A stretch of DNA of 64,000 bases, taken from the IMG/VR virus record IMGVR_UViG_3300022682_000016, positions 1-64,000 of that record; one strand, given 5' to 3'. Positions 2,755-10,848 of this stretch are shown here, in pieces. The position numbers and the translations under genes are program-made. The notes beneath the pieces are model-generated. The model was given only the letters and a program-made list of their open reading frames with translations. It was not told the DNA's origin and did not search any database. This DNA is from a virus. How positions within the stretch are numbered: position 1 is the stretch's first letter; every line of letters starts with the position of its first letter.

Positions 2755-4251
2755 ATGGTAACTTTCACCGTAAATAATATACTTACCCACGTAGATAATC
2801 CTAACCAAATATCCGCAGCTGTGGGTAAGTATTTATATATAAAAACAAACACTTTCTATAAAGGCATTGACCAACAAGTTTATGCATCTACTGGAAAAAC
2901 TGTACTCAAAACAAAATTTAAAGTAGACACACTCCAAGTATATAACCAAAGCACACAAATGTTCCCGACTGGCAGGCTTGGTTACTTAGTTGACTGGTGT
3001 AAAGAACGAGGAATACCGGTTAATGTAATTGACAATCGAATAATGCCAAAAAAGTTGTTTGATGCTAAGTATATTGGGCCACCGTCTGACGGAAGTGATG
3101 GTAAACCTCCTAGAAGTTATCAATTAAGAGCACCTGAACTTGTGAAGCAAAAAAGCAGGGGCATTTTATGGTATGCTACTGGCGCTGGAAAAACAATTAC
3201 CGGGGCTAGGATTATACAACGATTAGGAGTAAAAACATTATACATGGTACCCTCTTTAGATTTATTGGATCAAACGCATACAGCATTACAAGGACTATTA
3301 AAAAATGTATCTGTTGGTATAATTGGGGGAGGTTCTTGGGATCCTAAAGAAATTACAGTAGCTACCACAGCTACTTTATGGAGTCGCTACGAAACTAAAG
3401 AGTGCAAAGAATTATTATCCTCTATAGATCTACTAATTGTAGATGAGTGCCACCATACCCAAAGAAAAGGAAAAGGCCAGAAAACAAAAAATAAACGTGG
3501 AAAAACCTACGATGTTAATTCATGGTACATATTAGCACTACACTGTAATGCATATTACCGAATAGGGCTGACCGGAACTCCTGGAAAAGATATTGAGCAA
3601 AAACGTTCCTTATTAGAATGTGTATTAGGTCGAGTAATTGATCGAGTATCTGTAAAAGAACTTATTGACTTGGGAGTACTGACAGATGTTGAAGTACATA
3701 TTCACACAATAAAACATAACAGAGTAATTCCCGATTACCCCTCAGCACGTAGAGAAGGGGTACTATTAAATGAGGACTTCAATAGATATATTGTAAACGT
3801 AGCTATAACAGAATTAAAAGCAGGTAAATACGTCTTACTATTAACAGGATCTAAAGCACATCAAGGACCAGCTTTATCCAAGCTATTTAAAGAATACGGA
3901 TACGAGGTAGGGTTTGTGTCTGGAGACGATAAACGAAAAAAACGTGTTCAGATCAGAGAAGATTTTAGAGATGGAAAGATAAGATGTCTTATTGGAACAG
4001 TATATAAAGAAGGCGTAGATTTCCCAAAACTTGATGTTGGGATACTTTGTGATGGTGGTCAAGACGAAAAGGGTACTTGCCAATTCATGGGTCGTATTTT
4101 AAGGACTTCTGAGGGAAAAACAATTGCAAGGCTACATGATTTTATGCATAAAGACAAAAAACATCTACAAAGACACTCAAATGCCCGTCTAAACACCTAT
4201 GTAGAAGAAGAAATAGACACCATAATAACCCATGAGGGAATTATCCTATGA
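2755..4251 (+). CDS. SF2 DNA helicase (UvsW/XPB-like)
   Basis: Motifs ATGAGKT, DECHH, LTGTP, EGVDFP, QFMGRILR. Confidence 0.88.
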   Translation: MVTFTVNNILTHVDNPNQISAAVGKYLYIKTNTFYKGIDQQVYASTGKTVLKTKFKVDTLQVYNQSTQMFPTGRLGYLVDWCKERGIPVNVIDNRIMPKKLFDAKYIGPPSDGSDGKPPRSYQLRAPELVKQKSRGILWYATGAGKTITGARIIQRLGVKTLYMVPSLDLLDQTHTALQGLLKNVSVGIIGGGSWDPKEITVATTATLWSRYETKECKELLSSIDLLIVDECHHTQRKGKGQKTKNKRGKTYDVNSWYILALHCNAYYRIGLTGTPGKDIEQKRSLLECVLGRVIDRVSVKELIDLGVLTDVEVHIHTIKHNRVIPDYPSARREGVLLNEDFNRYIVNVAITELKAGKYVLLLTGSKAHQGPALSKLFKEYGYEVGFVSGDDKRKKRVQIREDFRDGKIRCLIGTVYKEGVDFPKLDVGILCDGGQDEKGTCQFMGRILRTSEGKTIARLHDFMHKDKKHLQRHSNARLNTYVEEEIDTIITHEGIIL

Positions 4252-4661: not shown

Positions 4662-5228
4662 ATGAAATTATCTGAATATGCTAAAAAACACAGTATTACT
4701 TACAAAACTGCGTTTATTCATTGGCAAAAAGGTTTTATAAAGGGAAAGCAACTACCAACAGGAACGATAGTTGTTTTTGACGAGGAGTGTCTCGAAGTTA
4801 CTGATTATTGTATTTATTGCAGAGTATCTTCTCATGATCAAAAATCTGATCTACTTCGACAAGAGGGGCGATTAAAGGATTTTTGCAGTGCAAAAGGACT
4901 TAAGATAGCAGCTATCTACTCTGAAATAGCTTCAGGACTAAATGATAATAGACCTAAGTTTAATAAAGCTTTAAAAAGTAACCTCAATATCATAGCAGAA
5001 CACAAAGATAGGGTGACAAGATTTGGTTTTAATTACTTAAGTTCATTGCTGACAATGCAAAACAGAAAACTTGTTATAATAAATGATACCGAAAACAATG
5101 ATGACATTATCCAAGATTTTATATCTGTAATCACATCTTTCTGTGCAAGGATATACGGAAAAAGAAGGAGTAAAAGAAAAACAGAAAAACTTATTAAGGA
5201 ACTTAATGAAAATAACGAGAAGCGTTAA
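4662..5228 (+). CDS. tnpA: IS607 serine recombinase TnpA
   Basis: N-terminal HTH (MKLSEYAK), catalytic YCRVSS, EHKDRVTRFGF, SFCARIYGKR. Confidence 0.95.
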   Translation: MKLSEYAKKHSITYKTAFIHWQKGFIKGKQLPTGTIVVFDEECLEVTDYCIYCRVSSHDQKSDLLRQEGRLKDFCSAKGLKIAAIYSEIASGLNDNRPKFNKALKSNLNIIAEHKDRVTRFGFNYLSSLLTMQNRKLVIINDTENNDDIIQDFISVITSFCARIYGKRRSKRKTEKLIKELNENNEKR

Positions 5229-6992: not shown

Positions 6993-7186
6993 GTAGCGCT
7001 GGTAAAGGATCTGCGAGACGACCATTAAGTACCTCAGAAGAAGAATTTGATAAAAAATTCACAAATATTTTCAAAACAAAGTACTGTCTCAATTGTAGAA
7101 AAGTAACAAATGTAGAGATAGTGTCTGGAGAAGTTAGGTGTCAATCCTGTTTAAGAACTGTAAGCTTTGAAAAACCCAAAAAATAA
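6989..7186 (+). CDS. Small zinc-ribbon protein
   Basis: GKGSARRP N-terminus; CLNC and CQSC motifs. Confidence 0.6.
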   Translation: MSSAGKGSARRPLSTSEEEFDKKFTNIFKTKYCLNCRKVTNVEIVSGEVRCQSCLRTVSFEKPKK

Positions 7187-7458
7187 TAACGCATCAATAT
7201 CGGAGTGATTTATGAAAATAATACCTATCGGAACTGGAAGTGCATTCTCACTTAATAATTTTCAAACAAACCTTATTATAGAAAATTCTACCGGTAAACG
7301 TTTACTCATAGATGCTGGAGGAGATGTTCGACACGCTTTGAAAAAATTGGATCTGTCATATAAAGACATTGATGCGGTATATTTATCACACCTTCATGGG
7401 GATCATGTGGGAGGTAGAAGCAGTTTAATATAAAGTTATAAATACTTATAAAAACTTA

Positions 7459-7653
7459 TTGATTTTGGAGGTTAAATTGCGTATATTAAAGGTGTCAAAA
7501 TGTGAATTTGAATTAGATGACGGAAGTGTCTTTCCGATAGACCCTCCATTAGAAAAGGAAATGTCAGTTGAAGAATTTCAAAAACACTATGACTTCGCTT
7601 CTAAGACTATCGGAGGCTGCGGAAAAATTAGGGACAACAACTCAAACTCTTAG
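7459..7653 (+). CDS. Small accessory ORF at the IS607 left end
   Basis: A GGAGG SD precedes TTG at 7477; the ORF overlaps the tnpA start. Confidence 0.45.
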   Translation: MILEVKLRILKVSKCEFELDDGSVFPIDPPLEKEMSVEEFQKHYDFASKTIGGCGKIRDNNSNS

Positions 7654-8167
7654 GAATTGGGCTAACTCCGGAAGATTAAAAAGCGTTAGAACGCCGGGAA
7701 ATCAAAGAAGAATATCCTTGTCCGAGATAGAGAGGCTACAGGGTTCTCCAAAAAGAACAAAGTTATTAATCTATGCTAGAGTATCTACGCAAAAACAGAA
7801 AGATAATCTTGATAGGCAGGTTGGACGGCTTCTGGAACATGCAATTACTATTTCTAAAGATTTTGAGTTGTACACAGACATAGGAAGTGGTCTTAATGAT
7901 AATAGAAAATCATTTAAGAAGCTTCTCGTTAGGATATCAGATCCTGATGTAATGGGGATACTCATTGAATATAAAGACAGGATAAGTAGATATGGGTTTA
8001 CTACGCTTGAGACATACTGTAATAATCTTGGTGTTTCTGTGTATGTAATGAATAAATCTGAGTCTCTTGATTTTGAACAGGAATTTTCTAAAGATATAGT
8101 GTCTCTTATAGCATCCTATTCTGCCAGACTTTGCATTAAAAATAGGAGATGGCATGGCAAGGGTTAA
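7589..8167 (+). CDS. tnpA: IS607 serine recombinase TnpA with a replaced C-terminus
   Basis: MerR-like HTH, YARVST, EYKDRISRYGF. The native tail YGRRGGKAKKKK* is displaced to 8986-9024. Confidence 0.9.
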   Translation: MTSLLRLSEAAEKLGTTTQTLRNWANSGRLKSVRTPGNQRRISLSEIERLQGSPKRTKLLIYARVSTQKQKDNLDRQVGRLLEHAITISKDFELYTDIGSGLNDNRKSFKKLLVRISDPDVMGILIEYKDRISRYGFTTLETYCNNLGVSVYVMNKSESLDFEQEFSKDIVSLIASYSARLCIKNRRWHGKG

Positions 8168-8984
8168 ACGAATTTGTCAAAACTGCGGGGGTTCTTTTTA
8201 TATAGACCACTGGAGGCTGAAGGATATGAATCGAGGTAAGTTTTGTTCTAGGGAATGCAGTGGGCGTTCTTTGAAAGAGGTTAATAAAGATTTTTTCAAA
8301 GAACCTTCTGCTAATATGGCGTGGGTAATGGGGCTTATGTTTTCTGATGGGTGTTATTATAGAAATCAATTTTCTATAAAATCTATAGACCGACAACTCC
8401 TTGAAACAGTCAAGAGTGTGATGGAAAGCACCTATACTATACGGCAAACTGAAAAGACTTCAGCTGGGAGTCTTGTCTACGTTTTAGATGTTTGCGGTTC
8501 AAAGTTAGAAGTTACGCCAGAGTACTGGGGAATGCATAGTCATAAAACATTTACTATTAAGTACCCTGAAAATCTGCCGGATAAATATGCCCCTGATTTT
8601 ATCAGGGGGCTGTTCGATGGCGATGGCCATGTTCGTGTTGCTATAGATAAACGTAGGAAAAATAGTTATAGTCGTGAATGGCATTTGTTAGGGACAAAGA
8701 GTTTGTTAATAGAAGTACAATCTAAGCTGCCTGCTCCCTGTAGCTTTACTGATTATAAAAAGATAGCAAAAATTCGTTGTTACTCTATCAGATATTTGAC
8801 TACTCTGTATGAATATTTGTACTATAAAAAAGAGATACCTTGTCTCACTCGCAAACGTCTCAAGTTTGAAGATGCAATAAAAATGTCAGAGGATGTAGAG
8901 GTAAGTTCCTTTGAGAGAGTCAATAGTGTTTTACAAAGTGTCAATAAATATACTCGAAAAAGGTATTATGCATCTTTGTCTTAA
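8154..8984 (+). CDS. LAGLIDADG homing endonuclease with an N-terminal zinc finger
   Basis: CQNC...FCSREC; WVMGLMFSDG and FIRGLFDGDG motifs; AGGAG SD. Confidence 0.88.
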   Translation: MARVKRICQNCGGSFYIDHWRLKDMNRGKFCSRECSGRSLKEVNKDFFKEPSANMAWVMGLMFSDGCYYRNQFSIKSIDRQLLETVKSVMESTYTIRQTEKTSAGSLVYVLDVCGSKLEVTPEYWGMHSHKTFTIKYPENLPDKYAPDFIRGLFDGDGHVRVAIDKRRKNSYSREWHLLGTKSLLIEVQSKLPAPCSFTDYKKIAKIRCYSIRYLTTLYEYLYYKKEIPCLTRKRLKFEDAIKMSEDVEVSSFERVNSVLQSVNKYTRKRYYASLS

Positions 8985-9020
8985 CTATGGCAGGAGAGGT
9001 GGAAAGGCTAAGAAAAAGAA

Positions 9021-10199
9021 ATGAATCGTTCTCATAAAATAAGGCTTAGTCCTAATAATAAGCAGATCACTTATTTTAAAAAGGCTTGTGGTTGTGCAAG
9101 GCTTGCTTATAATTGGGGCTTGTCTGAATGGAAGATTCAATACGAAAACAAAGAAAAGCCGTCATCTTATTCTATAAAGAAAAAGTTTAACTCTATAAAG
9201 AAGACTAATTTTCCTTTTGTATATGAAGTGACAAAGACGGCTTGCGAGTCAGCGTTTAGCAACTTAGATAAGGCGTTTAAAGGGTTTTTCAGAAGAGTTA
9301 AGATAAATAAGAAACCTGGATACCCTAAGTTTAAGAAAAAAGGAATCCATGATTCATTTACTATTGATAACTCAAAATTTTCAATTCAAGAAAACAAAAT
9401 AAAGATTCCAAAGCTCGGTTTTGTTAAGATGGCTGAGGGTCTTCGTTTTGATGGAAAGATACTTTCTGCCACTATTTCAAGAACATCTAATATGTGGTTT
9501 GTTTCTATATCTGTTGATATTCCAAATGAGGAGAGTAAAAACCAAGCCTTCTCAGCAGTAGGAATTGATCTTGGTATTAGTAAACTTGCTACATTATCAG
9601 ACGGAACGGTGTTTGAAAATATAAAGACTACCAAAAAATATGAAAGGAGATTAAGAAGAATAAACAAGTCTTTATCTCGAAAGATTGTCGGAAGCAACAA
9701 TAGGTTGAAATCAAAATTTAAATTATCAAGATTGCATTATAAGATAAAATGTGTGCGAAGCGATTTTATTCACAAGATGACACAGACGATATCTGATAAT
9801 TTTACGGATGTTTTTATTGAGGACTTGAATGTTTCTGGAATGGTTAAGAATATGAAGTTATCTAAAGCCATTTCTGATGCATCTTTTTATGAGATACGAA
9901 GGCAACTTGAATACAAGGTTAAAAATGTCCGTACTGTAAATAGATTCTTCCCAAGCACCAAATTATGTTTCGAGTGTGGTACGATACATGAAATGCCATT
10001 AAGTAAAAGAGTTTTTAAATGTGACTGTAATGGAGTCGAAATTGATAGAGATGTTCATGCGACACAAAATATACTACGGCAGGGTTTGTCGAAAGTAAAG
10101 CCTGCGAAGATGGAAGCTCTGGCTGTTAGAAATAACAGTGAAACTACCGTCACTGAAGCAGGAAATCCACGTAAAGGTTTTGAAAGGAAACCCTTCTAA
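9021..10199 (+). CDS. tnpB: TnpB RNA-guided nuclease
   Basis: OrfB HTH (CGCARLAYNW), GYPKFK, RuvC motifs GIDLG / IEDL / DRDVHA and a zinc finger. Confidence 0.95.
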   Translation: MNRSHKIRLSPNNKQITYFKKACGCARLAYNWGLSEWKIQYENKEKPSSYSIKKKFNSIKKTNFPFVYEVTKTACESAFSNLDKAFKGFFRRVKINKKPGYPKFKKKGIHDSFTIDNSKFSIQENKIKIPKLGFVKMAEGLRFDGKILSATISRTSNMWFVSISVDIPNEESKNQAFSAVGIDLGISKLATLSDGTVFENIKTTKKYERRLRRINKSLSRKIVGSNNRLKSKFKLSRLHYKIKCVRSDFIHKMTQTISDNFTDVFIEDLNVSGMVKNMKLSKAISDASFYEIRRQLEYKVKNVRTVNRFFPSTKLCFECGTIHEMPLSKRVFKCDCNGVEIDRDVHATQNILRQGLSKVKPAKMEALAVRNNSETTVTEAGNPRKGFERKPF

Positions 10200-10848
10200 C
10201 TTTTTATAAGTTGGATAAACCAGGTGTTGAATATTTAGCATTCTGCTCCTATTTCGACCCTTCCAAAGGACCTAAATCCATAAAACTTATAGGACATCAA
10301 CGAATATTGAGAGATGCTTGGGACAATGCTCTAAAGGCGGGATTACGATCTATCCAAGGAAAAGTTGTTGGGATGGAAGATTATTTCGATGTAAAGCCTT
10401 TGAGTGATAATAGTAGCTTCTACTGGGAAGATATCCAATTCAGTATTGTACAAAGTGTACATATTATGGATGGCTACTCTATCGTACCTTCCTACGGATT
10501 AATGATCAAAGACACGAACAACGATAAGAAGGTTTATATAACATCTGACAGTCAATTCAATCCTAATCAGATTAAAGATTTTTATGACCAAGCAGATATT
10601 ATTATTCAAGATTGCGAGACGGCCCCGTTTCAATCAGGTGTTCATGCCCACTACACCGAACTAGCCACACTCTCAGATAATATTCGGTCAAAAATGATTC
10701 TTATCCATTATCAAGACAACATTATAAATGAGTGGGATAGTTCACAGAAAAAAGCAAAAGGGGATGGATTTATTGGCTTCGCAAAACCAGGCATCGATGT
10801 CTTGACCCAAACAACTGACTCAGAAATAAAATAAAAAAGGAGTATACT

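Follow-up and report, generated by a model that had tools for sequence, protein, structure and literature searches.

An intron-less LAGLIDADG endonuclease gene in the tnpA gene of an IS607-type element on a viral contig, and its relatives at the same codons

Homing endonuclease genes normally sit in essential, conserved host genes, where an intron or an intein renders them harmless. How can such a gene lie inside the transposase gene of another mobile element with neither of these devices? The question is raised by IMG/VR record IMGVR_UViG_3300022682_000016, a virus contig of 90.3 kb with an estimated completeness of ~49% (CheckV), of which we analyzed the first 64 kb (the window). The window carries an IS607-type element whose gene content is tnpA, encoding a MerR-type helix-turn-helix (HTH) and a resolvase catalytic domain, an open reading frame (ORF) of 276 codons that matches LAGLIDADG_3, and tnpB. 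A serine recombinase TnpA with an N-terminal HTH, together with TnpB, places the element in the IS607 family, as judged by Pfam and by alignment to the ISC1926, IS1535 and MJ0014 structures. An earlier note on this DNA had read the middle gene as a nested parasite, a LAGLIDADG gene without intron or intein in the 3' end of tnpA, and the ORFs, the Pfam matches, the lack of a ribozyme and the insert-free relatives described below all agree with that reading. Positions are those of the window, and the features given for it lie on the plus strand.

Anatomy of the insert in tnpA

The tnpA core, up to ...SYSARL, was located at 7589-8131 (Pfam Resolvase, HTH_17 and MerR); it is 95% identical to the insert-free protein P0008 and aligns to the catalytic domains of the three solved TnpA proteins. 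The gene was listed from a TTG at 7568, and the ATG at 7589 is the likelier start, giving the 192-aa product on record (P0138). It reads ...SLIASYSARL to the CTT codon ending at 8131 and then runs into CIKNRRWHGKG, with a stop at 8165-8167. This replacement tail (8132-8167, stop included) is read in another frame from the leader and first codons of the endonuclease gene. The insert itself spans 8132-8985 (854 nt) and consists of a 22-nt leader with a ribosome-binding site (AGGAG, 8144-8148, 5 nt ahead of the ATG), the LAGLIDADG homing endonuclease gene (8154-8984, 276 aa) and 1 nt; a T is present on both sides, so the boundary may shift by 1 nt. From 8986 the codons TAT GGC AGG AGA through to AAG AAA TGA spell YGRRGGKAKKKK and a stop. 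This is the displaced native tail of tnpA (8986-9024), and its stop still overlaps the tnpB start codon at 9021 (ATGA). These boundaries, the displaced tail and its overlap with tnpB were all given correctly in the earlier note.

Removal of the insert in silico restored the tnpA frame, and the rejoined flanks gave the uninterrupted tail of the relatives. Insert-free TnpA relatives (up to 95% identity), which the earlier note had suggested looking for, read through the site as ...SYSARLYGRRGGRAKKKK. P0008 (95% identity) and P0137, the closest TnpA relatives in a collection of 5.8 billion proteins, end ...SLIASYSARLYGRRGGRAKKKK; P0009, P0010 and all more distant relatives inspected were likewise unbroken. 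The insert is real and precise.

We found that the endonuclease ORF fills 831 of the 854 nt (97%), with only 22 nt and 1 nt outside it, leaving no room for a group I or II core, as had been noted before. A search of 7000-10600 against Rfam gave no meaningful match to a group I or II intron or any other family even at E <= 10, and no intron ribozyme was matched at E <= 1 in the five related loci described below (L006, L010, L011, L070 and L084). An intron-encoded endonuclease was rejected on these grounds, with no ribozyme core around or overlapping the ORF. An intein was rejected too, since the insert, whose length is not divisible by 3, does not keep the tnpA frame, which meets a stop 12 codons in; the ORF has a ribosome-binding site and an ATG of its own, and no Hint domain was matched in Pfam. 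The ORF is a free-standing homing endonuclease gene, without intron and without intein.

The earlier note had also placed the insertion point in the loop of a hairpin formed by the flanks and had hinted at hairpin-loop targeting or an RNA-processing route. When the rejoined flanks of the window were folded, CCTATTCTGCCA (8115-8126) and TGGCAGGAGAGG (8988-8999) formed a 12-bp imperfect stem with the junction in a 7-nt loop (-16.4 kcal/mol, z = -3.4 relative to shuffled sequences); the 5' arm begins at 8115, slightly off the start first given. The hairpin is thus real in the window copy, but it was not seen at other occupied sites, where z was -0.6 (L006), +1.8 (L011) and +1.1 (L084), and 66 empty sites gave a mean z of -0.8 with a minimum of -3.1. 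It arises because the Ser-Ala codons TCT GCC and the Gly-Arg codons GGC AGG (AGA/G) are near reverse complements, and different codon choices abolish it. Since no such fold occurs at L006, L011 and L084 and the mean at empty sites is weak, the hairpin is not a conserved property of the target, and targeting of a hairpin loop was not borne out. We likewise rejected a hairpin or palindrome as a general target feature, and an archaeal bulge-helix-bulge intron, as the rejoined flanks form a plain stem with a 7-nt loop in the window copy only. The partial dyad in the window lineage would at most suit a pseudo-symmetric LAGLIDADG enzyme at the DNA level.

One might take the same stem, with its low z-score, as a recognition structure by which full-length TnpA is restored, the insert being spliced out as an unrecognised intron, excised by hairpin-guided processing of the RNA, or skipped at translation by ribosomal bypass. 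The absence of a ribozyme match, the share of the insert taken up by the ORF and the origin of the stem in the codons TCT GCC and GGC AGA, with no counterpart at the other occupied sites, all stand against this, and we know of no precedent for a ribosomal bypass of 854 nt. We consider removal of the insert very improbable.

The same codons in other IS607 lineages

Further insertions of the endonuclease family were found, again as the earlier note had suggested looking for, and they lie at the same codon position in other tnpA lineages. Homologous genes (40-57% identity) occupy the same Leu-Tyr-Gly codons in four further loci in which the 5' junction is visible (L006, L011, L084 and L070). In L006, ...SFSARLY is followed by a leader and the endonuclease gene, then by GPHGGRKAKKE... 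and the tnpB start. In L011, ...SFSSRIY precedes an endonuclease gene whose frame continues into GARGGRKRKENSDAESA (GARGGRKRK..) and a stop that overlaps the tnpB ATG. L084 has ...CYSARYY, the gene, and then YGARGGRKKKN...ESNGI with a stop, and in L070 the gene follows ...CFSARL. A fifth related locus, L010, has only its 3' junction on the contig, where the tail resumes as YGRRGGRKAKKELEE... before tnpB. The insertion point falls between the Leu and Tyr codons in the window, in L070 and on the 3' side of L010, and between Tyr and Gly in L006 and L011; in L084 it is ambiguous over four bases.

These loci were recovered from viral contigs by alignment-based scans, single-protein queries with the endonuclease or TnpA having given no match there, and a scan of genome contigs with the endonuclease alignment gave none either. 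The homologues are rare: clustering at 90% identity leaves seven groups. When 1.84 billion representatives were searched with a profile, only ~15 clusters scored above 200 bits, after which the general LAGLIDADG_3 background began. In many members known as proteins only (P0005, P0006, P0007, P0141, P0143, P0144, P0146, P0150, P0151 and P0152), the C-terminus is a tail of the TnpA type, read in frame, with YG(R/K/A)R(S/G)... and then basic residues. L007/P0140, the nearest outgroup, is a free-standing gene of a high-GC phage outside any tnpA, and further out the relatives are LAGLIDADG genes of the ordinary kind found in phages and plasmids; cultured phages and plasmids held only such distant relatives, below 36% identity and none covering 80% of the query. 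Among the sequencing runs listed, only two DNA runs and no RNA run had a small share of matching sequence, and they yielded short contigs of relatives and no joints; one contig fits from exactly 8986, but the 5 unmatched letters ahead of that point are too few to be informative.

Taken together, the sequences make it quite likely that these endonucleases form a small clade that has settled at a single conserved position in tnpA of the IS607 family, the Leu-Tyr-Gly of ...S(F/Y)SAR(L/I/Y)YG(R/A)RGG....

A gene of another type was seen in a related tnpA. In L042 (3489-7025; also L038 and L039, the same phage at 99.9% identity), another tnpA of IS607 type is interrupted behind ...ENELVED, at a point 12 codons upstream of the one used by the LAGLIDADG genes. 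The gene found there encodes a GIY-YIG-like N-terminus together with NUMOD3 repeats and at its other end continues in frame as the tnpA tail ...KKKEAEQE, which stops at the tnpB start; ~22 tnpA codons have been removed. L042 also has a LAGLIDADG gene just 3' of tnpB that L039 does not have. More than one family of endonuclease genes seems to be drawn to the 3' ends of tnpA.

Occupied and empty alleles were then compared. In a TnpA tree of 162 rows, each of the four complete endonuclease-bearing tnpA genes had an endonuclease-free nearest neighbour: P0008 for the window (95% TnpA identity), L050 for L006 (81%), L051 for L070 (85%) and L089 for L084 (98%). The tree requires four gains or losses of the gene. 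Presence and absence are thus polymorphic at one precise site, which for the window and P0008/P0137 was seen at the protein level. For L084 and L089 the comparison could be made base by base: TTAC flanks the 881-nt insert on both sides (4040-4043 and 4921-4924). The length of this repeat equals that of a LAGLIDADG 4-nt overhang. The repeat is clear in L084 only, and a 4-nt target duplication is not claimed as a general rule, as none is clear in the window, L006 or L011.

We consider intron-less homing of a free-standing LAGLIDADG gene into the conserved tnpA site to be the probable explanation, with cleavage and mobility inferred. The enzyme would recognize ~20 bp spanning the uninterrupted site in endonuclease-free IS607 copies and would cut there, probably leaving the 4-nt 3' overhangs that are the habit of the LAGLIDADG family. 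Repair of the break from an occupied copy would bring the gene in, and occupied copies would be immune because the insert splits the recognition site. The endonuclease ATG lies 11 nt upstream of the new tnpA stop, and for this reason the gene is expected to be expressed from the tnpA transcript, with its translation coupled to that of tnpA. TnpA would trade its conserved YGRRGG-basic tail for an arbitrary read-through tail, leaving its activity uncertain, and tnpB would keep its own start and ribosome-binding region. Spread among IS607 copies would proceed by gene conversion, and between genomes aboard the transposon and the phage.

Several observations weigh against homing of this kind. The junction is offset by 3 nt between lineages (L|Y or Y|G), and the empty alleles close to the window's element are known only as proteins. 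Occupancy is low: only 3 of 80 IMG/VR tnpA loci have a clade gene at the site (L066, which is the L006 contig, L070 and L084), and ~60 loci are unbroken (...CYSAR(Y/F)YG(A/R)RGGRKKK...). The divergence of the endonucleases (40-57% identity) is similar to that of the TnpA proteins (38-45%), and the GC content of the endonuclease genes follows that of each host element. This pattern also fits one ancient insertion followed by co-divergence and repeated precise loss, as opposed to frequent recent homing. Signs of decay were seen in some copies, namely a broken 3' end in P0128 and a missing C-terminal part in the L070 gene.

In its full form, this alternative holds that a single old insertion produced a three-gene IS607 variant (tnpA, the LAGLIDADG gene and tnpB) that has co-diverged with its host. 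The protein may then serve the element, as a DNA-binding or nicking accessory or by keeping tnpB translationally coupled, and the endonuclease-free sisters would have arisen by loss through recombination with empty copies. Besides the matched identities and GC contents, such a resident gene would account for the many copies whose frame continues into the tnpA tail, so that the overlap of stop and start codons with tnpB is re-established, and for the one copy (L070) that has gained a MerR HTH of the TnpA type. It accords poorly with the sporadic distribution and low occupancy, with endonuclease-free neighbours at 95-98% TnpA identity, with the existence of decayed copies, with the kept catalytic Asp residues, which would fit an active nuclease, and with an outgroup, L007/P0140, that is a free-standing phage gene outside any tnpA. 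We judge a co-opted third gene to be improbable. What is least certain is tempo: given the similar divergences and the matched GC contents, a long residence interrupted by occasional loss and renewed invasion accounts for the data no worse than horizontal homing at a high rate.

On a bolder view, the whole clade would depend obligatorily on IS607-family transposons as a hyperparasite and would have become entangled with its host in function. Many clade members have lost their own stop codon, and their frame runs on into the TnpA tail, which in long-tail families includes the C-terminal half of helix E; one has captured an HTH of the TnpA type. In this way the endonuclease could dock on TnpA assemblies or on the ends of the insertion sequence (IS), and the coupled start of tnpB could be preserved. 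We hold such entanglement to be about as doubtful as co-option. If true, it would give one element three modes of mobility, namely transposition, RNA-guided homing and protein-guided homing among IS copies.

Two further alleles deserve description. P0128, from the 86%-identity cluster of P0002, is disrupted at its 3' end, where the reading passes into the tnpA tail and the tnpB start in a shifted frame; it appears to be a decaying copy of a window-type endonuclease, and decayed copies fit the usual life cycle of homing endonuclease genes. In L051, the endonuclease-free sister of L070, the tnpA frame is lost exactly at the endonuclease site (~4050-4060), where ...CFSARL is followed by the tail GKRGGRPKGSKNKKK... 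in another frame. This loss fits a 4-nt deletion (TACG), possibly left behind when a cleaved site was repaired imprecisely; a deletion of 1 nt is the alternative.

The endonuclease and the altered TnpA

The insert ORF matched LAGLIDADG_3 with 33.6 bits, relative to a curated cut-off of 22.5 (Pfam), and contains two LAGLIDADG motifs, VMGLMFSDG (D65) and IRGLFDGDG (D157), each with an acidic residue at motif position 8. D65, G66 and D155-G158 were invariant in 10 homologues down to 32% identity, as were the four cysteines C8, C11, C31 and C35 of an N-terminal Cys4 module. An AlphaFold2 model of the 276-aa protein had a mean predicted local distance difference test (pLDDT) value of 83.3 and a predicted template modelling (pTM) score of 0.74. 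It comprises two tandem alpha/beta LAGLIDADG domains (alpha-beta-beta-alpha-beta-beta-alpha) packed through the motif helices, preceded by a short, low-confidence, zinc-ribbon-like module and followed by a small beta-rich region. Foldseek searches of the PDB with this model returned, at probability 1.00, I-Tsp061I (E = 1.6e-9), I-AniI, the bI3 maturase, E-DreI, I-OnuI variants and intein endonuclease domains. Together these features identify the protein as a monomeric, double-motif LAGLIDADG enzyme with an N-terminal four-cysteine module, and cleavage is predicted. Purifying selection on the endonuclease is indicated by the low nonsynonymous divergence between L006 and L010 (dN = 0.22), a comparison in which synonymous sites are saturated and hence no dN/dS ratio can be given.

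Two members of the clade differ in their domains. The gene of L010 has an extra N-terminal cysteine-rich module (96-300; ...WLCKCDCG...SCGC...) not seen in other members. That of L070 (4084-5238) has an N-terminal MerR-type HTH extension resembling the DNA-binding domain of the window's TnpA subfamily; its usual C-terminal region is missing, and it is fused to the tnpA tail.

To see what TnpA loses, we aligned it to the solved structures. SARLYGRRGG of the window TnpA stands opposite ...AGKIYGMRSH of ISC1926 TnpA. Helix E of TnpA is broken by a four-residue turn, GRRG in IS1535 and GMRS in ISC1926, and deletion of helix E impairs assembly of the paired-end complex in IS1535 TnpA (PMC6188088). 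By this alignment the endonuclease gene sits immediately before the turn that splits helix E. The site is one of the most conserved stretches of TnpA. High conservation of this kind is typical of homing sites. Because only ~8 basic residues follow the turn in the window's TnpA subfamily, little protein is lost; the lost YGRRGG motif is nearly invariant among TnpA relatives.

The earlier note had called the new sequence a substitute tail. A new basic tail is indeed present, but a functional replacement is not what the comparison indicates. At the five loci the new tails (CIKNRRWHGKG, PKRGRKSAAYHENMSGLRKELSD, KGER, KKDLTKPNR and TRFSKKDGKTCQENDATLL; 4-23 residues) are unrelated to each other and to the YGRRGG... 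that they displace, and share only a bias toward K, R and G. The bias arises because the endonuclease gene's purine-rich leader, with its ribosome-binding site, is read in the frame of tnpA, and the native tail is likewise purine-rich because it carries the ribosome-binding region of tnpB. The new tail thus looks like a by-product of read-through and not a transported replacement.

The loss of this conserved tail bears on whether the composite still works. It could be a decaying relic in a phage genome, with a window endonuclease that no longer cuts and a truncated TnpA that is inactive. The effect of the helix E deletion in IS1535 TnpA (PMC6188088), the ~22 tnpA codons removed by the related GIY-YIG-like insertion and a broken solo tnpB on the same contig all lend this some weight. 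On the other hand, all three ORFs of the element are full length, the window endonuclease retains every invariant residue of the clade, and the native tail past the turn is so short that little was lost. A dead passenger is therefore rather unlikely in our judgement, less so than the co-opted gene or the entangled hyperparasite considered above.

Known systems and the setting of the element

The nearest precedents for homing without an intron are the free-standing endonucleases of T4-like phages (seg and mob genes; 'intronless homing'), which include the gene-splitting insertions of mobE in nrdA of phage Aeh1 and mobA in gene 60 (PMC2988022). Like the window gene, these have their own translation signals, use no intron or intein, lie in or beside a conserved gene of a phage-borne element, leave the host gene in pieces and are presumed to spread by double-strand-break repair from the occupied allele. 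Unlike it, they are GIY-YIG or HNH enzymes and usually cut away from their own insertion point, whereas here a LAGLIDADG gene lies in a transposase gene. Its occupation of the same codon position across divergent tnpA hosts suggests that cut and insertion sites coincide, as they do for intron and intein enzymes.

The mobile ORF elements (mORFs) of fungal mitochondria offer another comparison: LAGLIDADG or GIY-YIG genes lie in the 3' part of atp6, atp9, cox2 and nad3 and bring a replacement C-terminus (PMC3630166). There, too, an intron-less endonuclease gene occupies the 3' end of a coding gene, displaces the native C-terminal piece downstream and is sometimes in frame with the host gene piece. 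Those genes, however, carry a homologous host C-terminus, whereas here the tails are short and unrelated and the host is a selfish element of phages and bacteria, not an organelle gene; with tails of 4-23 residues related neither to YGRRGG... nor to one another, a fungal-type mORF was rejected.

Monomeric LAGLIDADG enzymes (I-Tsp061I, I-AniI, the I-DmoI-derived E-DreI, I-OnuI and PI-PfuI) share the predicted fold and both catalytic Asp residues with the window protein. They come from archaeal introns, group I introns and inteins and are only 8-17% identical, whereas no intron or intein surrounds the window gene and its product has the extra Cys4 module and the small C-terminal beta domain. IStrons combine a group I intron with TnpA/TnpB in IS605/IS607 transposons (bioRxiv 10.1101/2023.11.20.567912), and so resemble the window element in joining an IS607-type transposon to a second selfish module with two nucleases per element. 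They are spliced at the RNA level, with the intron enclosing the transposon genes, whereas here no ribozyme is present and a protein-only homing gene lies inside tnpA. The presence of two nucleases in one element, as the earlier note had it, agrees with the LAGLIDADG ORF and an apparently intact TnpB. Full-text literature searches for an association of IS607 with LAGLIDADG genes gave general reviews and IStron work, none describing it.

What comparison adds looks like a small clade of LAGLIDADG genes that has specialised on one site of IS607-family tnpA, at the helix-E turn, and that differs from the known cases in enzyme family, host gene, recurrent codon position and in-frame tail capture. 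The clade appears to have a gene of another selfish element as its host, and in the window this parasite on a parasite itself lies inside a phage anti-defence gene. No splicing is needed because the endonuclease gene lies at the extreme 3' end of tnpA, at a structural turn. The system would allow tests of how much of the helix-E tail IS607 TnpA needs, of how two nucleases, one guided by protein and the other by RNA, share a single element, and of whether endonuclease-driven gene conversion homogenises IS copies. It also offers about a dozen natural monomeric LAGLIDADG enzymes for which empty tnpA alleles directly give the likely target sites, a useful property for meganuclease engineering.

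The element as a whole measures ~2810 bp (7416-10225, ends approximate), with AGGT at both junctions and a 15-nt subterminal inverted repeat (7444-7458 and 10197-10211, 93% complementary). Its tnpB (9021-10199, 392 aa) matched OrfB_IS605, HTH_OrfB_IS605 and Cas12f1-like_TNB in Pfam, and the RuvC-like motifs GIDLG, IEDLN and DRDVHA are visible in the translation. The element splits an Apyc1-like (anti-Pycsar) gene of the metallo-beta-lactamase fold directly after HLHGDHVGG. The N-terminal part of that gene (7212-7415) matched Lactamase_B and Anti-Pycsar_Apyc1 (profile positions 4-70), and the frame is picked up again at GTT 10226 by the C-terminal part (10226-10834; Anti-Pycsar_Apyc1, profile positions 81-226). 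No intron-like RNA was found at this interruption (Rfam, 7000-10600), and the Apyc1-like gene is probably inactivated.

Beyond the window, the same contig carries a decayed solo tnpB on the minus strand (83570-84717; loci L004/L005), 56% identical, with internal stops and a frame break and with no adjoining tnpA. Just upstream of tnpA and overlapping its start is an ORF of ~60 codons (7459-7653), found also in L006 (3255-3437) and L070 (3335-3565). Its sequence is alike in the three elements (...DG..I.FD.P...E...EF...) and has no Pfam match; it may be one more gene, or a feature conserved at the left end in this IS607 subfamily.

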